Below, piece after piece: positions 2,030 to 52,115 of a DNA stretch of 64,000 bases. The notes below the pieces were generated by a model, which saw only the letters and a list, made by a program, of their open reading frames with translations, was not told the origin of the DNA and did no database searches. The stretch lies in the NCBI RefSeq assembly GCF_054482525.1, contig NZ_CM137006.1, one strand, 5' to 3'. The position numbers and the translations under genes were made by a program. Within the stretch, counting starts at the first letter, position 1. Each line of letters starts with the position of its first letter.

Positions 2030-2716
2030 ATGACCCCAATAAAAATATTTATGACTATTGCTGATTTCAAACGGCCTAAATTGGAGCTCCCAAACGGGGC
2101 AAACAAACTACTACTGCACTCTTGCTGTGCTCCATGTTCCGGTGAAGTGATGGAGGCGCTTCAGGCCTCGGGAATCGACTACACCATCTTTTTCTACAAC
2201 CCGAACATTCATCCTCAGAAAGAGTATTTAATTCGTAAGGATGAAAATATTCGCTTTGCTGAACAACACGGCGTGCCGTTTATCGATGCTGATTACGACA
2301 CCGACAACTGGTTTGAACGTGCCAAAGGAATGGAATGGGAGCCTGAGAGGGGGATCCGTTGTACCATGTGTTTTGACATGCGTTTTGAGCGGACAGCGTT
2401 GTACGCTGCTGAAAATGGTTTCAGTGTGATCAGCAGTTCACTGGGCATTTCACGCTGGAAAAATATGCAGCAGGTTAACGAGTGTGGGCGGCGAGCTGTT
2501 GCGCATTATCCGGGTATGGTGTACTGGGATTATAACTGGCGCAAGCAGGGCGGCTCGTCCCGTATGATTGAAATCAGCAAGCGCGAAAAATTCTATCAGC
2601 AGGAATATTGTGGCTGTGTGTATTCTCTGCGCGATACCAATCTACACCGCAAATCTCAGGGACGCCCTCTTATCAAAATTGGCCAACTCCACTACGGAAA
2701 AGAAGAGAAGGAGTGA
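2030..2716 (+). CDS. queH: QueH-like (DUF208) epoxyqueuosine reductase
   Basis: 228 aa with [11 protein letters not shown] near the N-terminus, [20 protein letters not shown] and C-terminal QEYCGCVYS motifs, recalled as the QueH cysteine signature; own upstream TTGACA at 1904-1909. Confidence 0.6.
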
Positions 2717-2952
2717 TTTTATGGATCACCTTTCTGATTGATTTTATATTGGCGAGGTAACGGGAGTTAAGTAGAATGGCTGCGGGTGCTTGAGGCTATC
2801 TGTCTCAGGCATGAACACCAAAGGCAGATAGAGAAAAGCCCCAGTTAACATTACGCGTCCTGCAAGACGCTTAACATTAATCTGAGGCTCAATCTATGAA
2901 CGGCAAATCTAGGTTAGCCTCTTACGTGCCGAAAGGCAAGGAGAAGCAGGCT

Positions 2953-3108
2953 ATGAAGCAGCAAAAGGCGATGTTAATCGCCCTGATCGTCATCTGTTTA
3001 ACCGTCATTGTGACGGCACTGGTAACGAGGAAAGACCTCTGCGAGGTACGAATCCGAACCGGCCAGACGGAGGTCGCTGTCTTCACAGCTTACGAACCTG
3101 AGGAGTAA
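2953..3108 (+). CDS. hokD: Hok/Gef-family type I toxin; in-frame Mok-like N-terminal extension begins at 2896
   Basis: MKQQKAMLIALIVICLTVIVTALVTRKDLCEVRIRTGQTEVAVFTAYEPEE (51 aa) matches Hok/Gef/RelF as recalled; GCTTGAGGC leader motif at about 2788-2800. Confidence 0.7.
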   Translation: MKQQKAMLIALIVICLTVIVTALVTRKDLCEVRIRTGQTEVAVFTAYEPEE

Positions 3109-3251
3109 GAGACCTGGCGGGGGAGAAATCCCTCGCCACCTCTGATGTGTCAGGCATCCTCAACGCACCCGCACTTAACCCGCTTCGGCGTTTTTTCCGT
3201 TGATTAACTCTAGTTATTAGAGAACCGAACTTTTATTGATGGGGCAGGGAG

Positions 3252-3644
3252 ATGAAGAAACTTGTTTTAGTCGCAGGTGTAATGATTGCAACAGTAATGT
3301 TGGGAGGGTGTGCAGCAAAGATCGATCCAGCGTTGAAAGCAGAAGCAATGAAGCCACTAACATGTAATGATGAAAAGCAATGTGACTTTTATTGGAAACG
3401 AGCGCAATTCTGGTTGGCTAATAATTCCTCATGGAAAATTCAAACGGCGACAGACACGCTAATTTCCACTTATAATCCCTCTCCAAATAGTCCATTCCTC
3501 GCTTATCAAGTGAGTAAAATGCCAAATGAAGATGGATCCTCAAGAATTTTCATCAAGCCTTTTTGCGATAATATGTTTGGCTGTCAACCAAACCCCTATC
3601 AGGCAGTTGTTTCCTTTAAAAACTTCGTTAAAACAGGGCAGTAG
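3252..3644 (+). CDS. Predicted lipoprotein of unknown function
   Basis: 130 aa; signal peptide with lipobox (VMLGGCAA); four further Cys; RBS ggga 7 nt upstream. Confidence 0.55.
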   Translation: MKKLVLVAGVMIATVMLGGCAAKIDPALKAEAMKPLTCNDEKQCDFYWKRAQFWLANNSSWKIQTATDTLISTYNPSPNSPFLAYQVSKMPNEDGSSRIFIKPFCDNMFGCQPNPYQAVVSFKNFVKTGQ

Positions 3645-6522: not shown

Positions 6523-6598
6523 GGCCCTTTAGCTCAGTGGTGAGAGCGAGCGACTCATAATCGCCAGGTCGCTGGTTCAAATCCAGCAAGGGCCACCA
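6523..6598 (+). tRNA. tRNA with CAT anticodon (Ile2/Met-type)
   Basis: 76 nt cloverleaf ending CCA; anticodon loop CTCATAA; close to E. coli ileX as recalled. Confidence 0.7.
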
Positions 6599-6599
6599 G

Positions 6600-6676
6600 C
6601 CGCCACTAGCTCATCAGGAAAGAGCGTCAACCCTTTAAGTTGAGTGTGCGAGGTTCGAGTCCCCGGTGGCGGTCCA
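6600..6676 (+). tRNA. Atypical tRNA-like gene (anticodon loop CCTTTAA, UUU with C33); possibly non-canonical or pseudo-tRNA
   Basis: 77 nt; acceptor CCGCCAC/GTGGCGG plus T-CCA; D-arm GCTC/GAGC; T-loop TTCGAGT; one A-C mismatch in T-stem. Confidence 0.4.
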
Positions 6677-6678
6677 GT

Positions 6679-6754
<76 letters not shown>

Positions 6755-6757
6755 TAT

Positions 6758-6832
<75 letters not shown>

Positions 6833-43292: not shown

Positions 43293-43839
43293 TATGTATT
43301 CCCTTGTGATTATAATCTTCATGAATATATCAATAAGTGCTGTTATCCAAAAAAAAGCACATTTGGATACTATTCTATGAAGTTCATTTTATTTTAAAGA
43401 TTACATGTAACAAATGTATTTAAAAGATTTCAAAATGTTTCCAATCTATTTAATATAATTCAGAATTATGAATTCTAAATATAAGCATTCATGAAAATTA
43501 TAAATACATATCAATATGTTATGAGTTGAGCGGAAATATAGGGGGTATCAATGATTGTTGCGCCAAACGGCTGGTGTGATCACGCGCACATTAATGAAGA
43601 CATAAAAAAAGCCGGCATCATGCCGGCCCAAAAAATATAAACAAGACGATAAAAGGCTAATAACGGAAGCATCATGACACAGAATAATAAAAAGGGATAA
43701 TTGTAATCAGTGCTAATATATTGATCGAATGAATTAATAAAGCCGATATCAAAGATAAATAAAATCGCTCAAAACGATTTTTCCTGTATTCACTGCCATT
43801 GCGCAAAAATTATCTATTTGTTCAAAAAATGATTGAGTC

Positions 43840-52028: not shown

Positions 52029-52115
52029 AACACATCAGATTTCCTGGTGTAACGAATTTTTTAAGTGCTTCTTGCTTAAGCAAGTTTCATCCCGACCCCC
52101 TCAGGGTCGGGATTT
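52029..52115 (+). ncRNA. dsrA: DsrA small regulatory RNA
   Basis: aacacatcagatttcctggtgtaacgaattttttaagtgcttcttgcttaagcaagtttcatcccgaccccctcagggtcgggattt matches DsrA as recalled; ends in a terminator. Confidence 0.85.

Follow-up and report, generated by a model that had tools for sequence, protein, structure and literature searches.

The hokD gene near the start of the window, by which we mean the whole stretch of 64,000 nucleotides analyzed here (contig NZ_CM137006.1 of assembly GCF_054482525.1), raises the question of whether it belongs to a complete toxin-antitoxin module or is a leftover toxin gene of the kind found in K-12. Our analysis indicates that window 2740-3200 is very probably a complete hok/mok/sok type I toxin-antitoxin module, i.e., a hokD allele and sibling of hokW-sokW, which a lambdoid E. 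coli prophage carries as a moron between its replication genes and Q, in the early-right region. Read at the level of sequence, every cis element of the hok/mok/sok paradigm is present between these positions. Modules of this kind are known, and RefSeq already lists this one as hokD. With hok/sok a textbook system and its sibling hokW-sokW characterized, the locus has little weight as a discovery. What the window offers is an undamaged hokD locus that can be set against the truncated K-12 reference copy.

The placement of the locus inside a prophage, proposed earlier by the sequence-only reading, is borne out by the surrounding genes. The window has the lambdoid order DUF977, QueH, hokD, lipoprotein, DUF968, RusA, Q, four tRNAs and lysis genes, and its first 7 kb are 96.7% identical to a prophage stretch of APEC IMT5155. 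In that strain the equivalent lambdoid prophage adjoins tRNA-Ser/mtfA and runs integrase, exonuclease, dicB, repressors, YdaT, DUF977, QueH, hokD, hypothetical protein, DUF968, RusA, Q, four tRNAs, holin, lysozyme and terminase, where the hypothetical protein after hokD is the lipoprotein ORF at window 3252-3644. The Q ORF of the window is uninterrupted (231 aa), and alignments to K-12 hokD and hokW revealed neither an IS element nor a rearrangement between 2740 and 3180. A stretch of 561 bases spanning the locus (2700-3260) recurs at 100% identity in many complete E. coli genomes, APEC IMT5155 and AR_0077 among them, and several of those listed come from poultry, dog, cattle or human hosts. 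RefSeq names the gene hokD in those genomes, with QueH and a hypothetical protein as its neighbors.

Several other genes of the window were recorded along the way. The prophage carries a QueH homologue (epoxyqueuosine reductase; Pfam QueH, 221 bits) at 2030-2716. A four-tRNA cluster (CAT, Lys-UUU, Thr-UGU and Gly-UCC) is located after Q at 6523-6832, about 3.8 kb downstream of QueH, and its CAT tRNA is called Met by ARAGORN and Ile by RefSeq in the equivalent gene. Two host sRNA genes, DsrA at 52029-52115 (plus strand, 102.5 bits) and RseX at 43604-43693 (minus strand, 97.7 bits), are also present, and the right part of the window is therefore ordinary E. coli chromosome outside the prophage.

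The toxin gene hok, here the hokD allele, occupies 2953-3108 on the plus strand and encodes 51 aa (MKQQKAMLIALIVICLTVIVTALVTRKDLCEVRIRTGQTEVAVFTAYEPEE), with a Shine-Dalgarno (SD) sequence GGAG at 2940-2943. Both the Hok/Gef-like ORF of this length and its in-frame extension from 2896 had been noticed before, and both are there. The ORF matches profile positions 1-42 of 42 of Pfam HOK_GEF (PF01848) with 82.9 bits (cut-off 22), and it matches PHROG 251 'MokW-like host killing' with E = 2.8e-33. The NCBIfam Hok models score the protein below cut-off (48.5 bits vs 73), and these scores were set aside because the Pfam match passes and the protein equals HokD. It is identical to K-12 HokD/RelF, with one synonymous nucleotide difference between the genes. 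The same K-12 peptide is toxic on overexpression and has served as a toxic control (bioRxiv 10.1101/2025.08.07.668861).

The UAC codon of Tyr47 (3091-3093, plus strand), read from the sequence in a UACG context, is a candidate site for TadA A-to-I editing, which would change Tyr to Cys. Editing of hokD mRNA is reported at the position equivalent to HokB Cys46, where the resulting Cys is the second cysteine of a disulfide pair (preprint 10.1101/2025.08.07.668861). The UACG context of this Tyr codon is kept even in R100 hok (GCTTACGAA).

The mok reading frame (2896-3108, plus strand, 70 aa) starts at ATG 2896 behind the SD sequence GAGG at 2884-2887, and is open into hok in the same frame. This relation is not fixed in the family. 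In our alignment (A2) of the window with 63 distinct related loci, three mok architectures are found upstream of an identical Hok: in 46 loci it is an in-frame 70-aa ORF, in 15 an upstream ORF of 19 codons that runs into an AUGA stop/start overlap, and in 3 a +1-frame ORF of 68 codons. As the frame relation varies, it is translation that matters and not the sequence of Mok.

Upstream of the reading frames, the promoter scan gave a putative hok promoter at 2749-2777 (plus strand) with 9/12 matches, consisting of a -35 element TTGGCG at 2749-2754, a 17-nt spacer and a -10 element TAGAAT at 2772-2777. The -10 element is kept in most related loci despite mosaic sequence upstream. The predicted full-length hok mRNA would span 2784-3197 (plus strand, about 414 nt), where the 5' end is set by promoter spacing and position 1 of the Rfam model, and the 3' end by the T-run. 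A leader motif had been pointed out at about 2790, and it corresponds to GCTTGAGGC at 2788-2796, its sole copy in the window. On its own this 9-mer is not significant, as at least one copy occurred in 47 of 100 shuffles. Its significance comes from the leader as a whole, which matches Rfam RF01794 at 2784-2958 on the plus strand (110 bits, gathering cut-off 59, E=4e-24, full model 1-157). Relative to the RF01794 consensus, the Sok hairpin region of the window holds an extra 16-nt insertion. Despite its name, this 'sok' family of Rfam matches the sense hok leader through the hok AUG rather than the antisense strand. Orienting Sok by Rfam alone would consequently put it on the wrong strand, as Sok is a partial reverse complement of the matched sense leader.

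The MFE fold of the 414-nt RNA has an energy of -164.3 kcal/mol (z = -7.8), which none of 100 shuffles matched. It pairs the 5' end of the mRNA, tac (translational activator element; 2784-2795, plus strand; GGGUGCUUGAGG), with fbi (fold-back inhibitory element; 3158-3170, plus strand; CCUCAACGCACCC) in a helix of 12 bp with one bulge. A 3' complement to the 5' leader had been suggested at 3135-3160; the complement exists, but it lies at 3158-3170, about 20 nt away from where it was first placed. In the same full-length fold, positions 2837-2848 of ucb (anti-SD; 2836-2848, plus strand) pair with 2877-2889, which is the mok SD region.

Removal of the 3' end changes this arrangement in the predictions. 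When 2784-3152 is folded, the 5' end moves onto ucb, so that 2784-2791 pairs with 2836-2842, and GAGGCU at 2884-2889 is freed to pair with AGCCUC at 2916-2921 (dcb). This closes a Sok-target hairpin at 2884-2921 (plus strand, 14 bp), which includes the mok SD and is seen only in the 3'-truncated fold. The mok AUG of the window allele is found in the loop of this hairpin and not in the stem, unlike most alleles. A third fold is predicted for the nascent RNA, where the first 32 nt form an 11-bp hairpin of -16.9 kcal/mol. Here 2786-2796 pairs with 2802-2812 (plus strand), which matches the R1 metastable structure (PMC9841398). Additionally, the predicted folds contain a GC-rich 10-bp hairpin just past the stop codon (3115-3138, plus strand), which is likely the 3' end-protecting stem of the processed mRNA. 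The last stem-loop of R1 is analogous, and disrupting it exposes the RNA to exonucleases (PMC9841398). RNA folding had been recommended as a check on the locus, and folding 2784-3197 and its shortened forms reproduced the tac/fbi closure, the ucb/SD pairing, the truncated refolding and the metastable hairpin. In silico, the predicted refolding matches the published R1 scheme point for point (PMC9841398).

The helices are kept across the family. Over the 64 loci, 95.6% of cells are paired vs about 40% when the partners are slid, and the tac/fbi helix is 99.7% paired. Compensatory changes were detected in 4 pairs only, in a covariation test that has little power because the loci were retrieved via an identical protein and are very close relatives.

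The antisense partner was expected to have its promoter on the minus strand around 2850-2950, and a promoter identical to the validated one of sokW is indeed found there. It covers 2911-2939 (minus strand), with a -35 element TTGCCT at 2939-2934, a 17-nt spacer and a -10 element TAACCT at 2916-2911. A sigma-70 scan of 2650-3300 called neither the Sok promoter nor the terminator. The scanner missed the promoter because TAACCT matches the consensus at 3/6 positions only, and we placed it by identity with the sokW promoter that has been mutated experimentally. In that work the 'pro-less' primer YO-421 changes exactly the TAACCT -10 element, whereby antitoxin activity was abolished and then partly restored by Sok in trans (PMC8621323).

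The predicted Sok RNA (2832-2904, minus strand) would be about 71-73 nt long. It would begin with a single-stranded tail (complement of 2891-2904), continue into a long hairpin resembling a terminator and have a U-rich end. Its start is placed at G2904, 7 nt past the -10 element, and the complement of its 5' tail covers the mok AUG. The predicted fold has an energy of -31.2 kcal/mol (z = -5.2). The predicted length agrees with the 71 nt of complementarity given for sokW, and the hokW mRNA probe YO-597 matches the minus strand of the window exactly (PMC8621323). As far as the sequence can tell, the locus encodes in cis an antisense Sok with its own promoter, covering the mok start. The loci with the AUGA-overlap form of mok carry another Sok promoter (TTGACC / TAATCT).

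The sibling hokW-sokW (Sakai prophage 5, VT2-Sakai) is 93% identical to the window over 417 nt. The hok -10 element, tac, ucb, Sok promoter, hok SD and fbi are identical between the two, as is the Sok body save one loop base. In both, mok is in frame with hok and 70 aa long, the toxin belongs to PHROG 251, and the host element is a lambdoid prophage. The differences are found in patch 2895-2910, where the cognate pair has a predicted duplex energy of -21.3 kcal/mol vs -4.1 kcal/mol for the window tail on the hokW target, and in the 5' hairpin, where the changes are compensatory. The 3' flanks differ as well, and so do four residues at the Hok C-terminus (TAYEPEE in the window vs VDYESEK in hokW). 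While the window module lies between QueH and DUF968/RusA/Q, hokW lies by ea22-like and DUF551 genes, and the module therefore behaves as a mobile moron. Experimentally, hokW-sokW is a demonstrated type I system in which hokW is neutralized by sokW. After mitomycin C induction Hok protein was made, growth arrest/lysis was sped up and phage release doubled, while prophage stabilization by hokW-sokW was not shown (PMC8621323).

The plasmid systems R1 and R100 fall in the same Pfam and Rfam families as the window locus, and share with it tac/fbi, ucb, mok SD/dcb, an antisense promoter inside mok and the UACG Tyr codon near the C-terminus. R100 Hok is 42% identical to window Hok. When R100 hok/sok was folded for comparison, its 5' and 3' ends closed in the same way, with a compensatory change in tac/fbi from U-A to C-G. 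The R1/R100 loci (parB) are on plasmids whereas the window locus is in a prophage, and post-segregational killing has been demonstrated for R1 only. In R100, as read from its sequence, mok is out of frame with hok, while the two are in frame in the window. mok is also out of frame with hok in R1. The hok homologue hokC/mokC (gef) of the E. coli chromosome has mok (orf69) in frame with hok, as in the window, but it is a separate paralogue located elsewhere on the chromosome, and its K-12 copy is inactivated by an IS element.

A type I toxin-antitoxin mechanism is well supported for the window locus by homology and structure, but the same does not hold for its biological role. For 2784-3197 our analysis shows sequence identity, alternative folds and conservation, whereas the transcripts, their 3' processing and the biological role are inferred, and the mechanism would run as follows. 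The promoter at 2749-2777 would give a stable mRNA of about 410 nt, according to the R1 paradigm. On the nascent mRNA, the 5' metastable hairpin (2786-2812) would block translation. Once the mRNA is complete, tac (2784-2795) would pair with fbi (3158-3170), and ucb (2837-2848) would then hide the mok SD, so that the full-length RNA is proposed to be neither translated nor bound by Sok. Slow 3' trimming to the 3115-3138 hairpin would remove fbi, whereupon tac could switch to ucb and the mok SD and AUG would be exposed on the target hairpin (2884-2921). Ribosomes starting from mok at 2896 could then either continue into hok in the same frame or make the hok SD accessible, giving a membrane-depolarizing peptide of 51 aa or 70 aa. 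A constitutive, short-lived Sok of about 71 nt would be made from the minus strand from ~2904 (promoter 2911-2939). Its 5' tail would pair over the mok start, and the duplex would be destroyed, probably by RNase III. As Sok would destroy the mRNA through this duplex, Hok is proposed to be made only once Sok synthesis stops, which could follow DNA loss, transcription shut-off or prophage induction.

The sequence-only reading went further and saw a functional addiction module rather than a decayed copy. The second part of this view holds in that all cis elements are present and the locus is not a K-12-style remnant, although the clipped terminator means that the copy is not quite pristine. The first part needs more caution, as addiction is unsupported (hokW aids lysis). 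The intact chromosomal loci hokA, hokB and hokC are reported to give neither post-segregational killing nor rifampicin activation (summarized in preprint 10.1101/2025.08.07.668861). Given the lysis role of hokW and these chromosomal hok loci without post-segregational killing, addiction is only one of several possible roles, and to ascribe it to the window locus is an assumption.

The module might also be structurally intact and physiologically silent, i.e., transcribed and folded but never activated to kill, which is what has been reported for other chromosomal hok loci. It would then persist only as a hitch-hiker of the prophage. A change in 3' processing, which the clipped terminator could bring about, would favor such silence. 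However, the sibling hokW-sokW gives Hok protein and a phenotype after mitomycin C (PMC8621323), and conservation of all regulatory helices is strong in at least 64 loci. The three mok architectures, moreover, all let ribosomes translate through the hok start, an argument for selection on function. We therefore find a silent module unlikely, and continue with a complete module as the preferred reading.

The 3' end is the only part of this module where an element of the family is damaged. The weak terminator described at about 3176-3196 could be confirmed, and it appears to be a clipped intrinsic terminator (3177-3197, plus strand) consisting of AACCCGCTTCGGCG and then T6, after which the sequence is unrelated to the family, where the consensus is AACCCGCTTCGGCGGGTTTTT. 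The remnant has a 3-bp stem (3181-3183 with 3188-3190), a UUCG loop and T6 at 3191-3196. Two G's of the 3' arm are lost, and the hairpin has an energy of -3.1 kcal/mol vs -11.3 kcal/mol for the 7-bp consensus. This clipped form occurs in 2/80 IMG/VR loci. A mosaic junction (3177-3260) within the 3' arm of the terminator fuses the module to the upstream region of the putative lipoprotein gene. The lipoprotein ORF at 3252-3644 encodes 130 aa with the lipobox LGGC and belongs to PHROG 16082 (unknown function), and it has no Pfam or NCBIfam match. With the terminator clipped, the hok mRNA may read through into this ORF.

Such a junction could mark early decay, where recombination clipped the terminator, the hok transcript reads into the lipoprotein gene, and the timer based on 5'-3' end pairing fails in comparison with R1. 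The loss of terminator stability, with the consensus cut to ...GGCG+T6, is in line with this, and the junction is present in only 251 of 5426 complete E. coli genomes vs 1626 with the same Sok allele. On the other hand, fbi is undamaged, its pairing with tac persists in the predicted fold, and the junction is unchanged in the 251 complete genomes. The hokW locus (VT2-Sakai, L084 1476-1980) has no counterpart of the consensus terminator at all, since its homology to other family members stops about 10 nt past fbi (about window 3180). As hokW is functional without it, the clipped terminator is not treated as inactivating, and we regard early decay as quite improbable. In VT2-Sakai, the hokW locus is followed by a YgiW/YdeI-family gene.

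The preferred reading, a complete module, differs from what is seen in K-12, where hokD (relF) is found in the cryptic prophage Qin, directly after relE. K-12 and the window agree fully in the 51-aa protein, the 3' UTR and fbi, while the terminator is full in K-12 and clipped in the window. Homology to the window starts no earlier than ~2940, about 13 nt ahead of the hok ATG. K-12 has consequently lost hok promoter, tac, ucb, Sok, Sok promoter and mok start to the relBE junction, and the window copy is the intact form. That the window holds a K-12-type remnant, i.e., a bare toxin gene lacking mok, sok and a promoter of its own, can be dismissed with near certainty despite the identical protein and the RefSeq name hokD, as the alignment shows a complete 170-nt leader in the window upstream of ~2940, where K-12 has the 3' end of relE. 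The full leader is found in 73/79 IMG/VR prophage loci encoding the identical Hok protein, and the remaining 6/79 are rearranged. Judged from these sequences, the complete form is the norm among prophage loci and the K-12 copy is the exception. The intact hokD form is also common in E. coli, as the window Sok allele occurs in 1626/5426 complete genomes (30%).

While the CDS and tac/fbi are almost invariant across the 64 aligned loci, a patch at 2890-2913 (columns 107-131 of alignment A2) is hypervariable. It takes in the region around the mok start codon, the target loop, and both the start site and the 5' tail of Sok. Pairwise identity averages 0.68 in the patch vs 0.99 in the CDS, and the patch is the entropy peak of the alignment. 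It has 17-22 alleles, which are combined with differing 5' hairpin variants. The target hairpin is kept in 17/17 alleles examined, at -11.5 to -15.9 kcal/mol. The predicted Sok-tail/target duplexes have means of -20.8 kcal/mol for cognate vs -7.6 kcal/mol for non-cognate pairs, and the window Sok tail on foreign targets is predicted to reach -1.4 to -9.1 kcal/mol.

A tentative interpretation, which we hold to be possible but less likely than not, is that this patch of ~24 nt is a specificity cassette under diversifying selection, where about 20 discrete alleles with mutually orthogonal Sok tails are shuffled among prophage backgrounds. If true, the cassette would keep the hok of each resident prophage in polylysogenic E. 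coli from being disarmed by another prophage's Sok. We found no discussion of this idea in the literature searched. The allelic patch offers a handle on whether co-resident prophage toxin-antitoxin modules avoid cross-talk. Among co-resident copies in IMG/VR, 0/16 within-genome pairs were identical in allele, which is not significant (chance P = 0.17). A rough estimate of same-allele depletion was rejected, because phage immunity and the relatedness of the strains act as confounders. The window allele is found at 1709 places in the 1626 genomes and in up to 4 copies per genome, and there is therefore no strict exclusion of co-residence for the same allele.

Related copies were also seen in other phages. 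The module occurs at 96% identity in a record labelled Actinobacillus phage vB_Apl-pPE4, and P1-like phages have an 88% identical copy. One IMG/VR locus has a piece of a second module (the Sok promoter region) joined immediately upstream of tac in a complete module.
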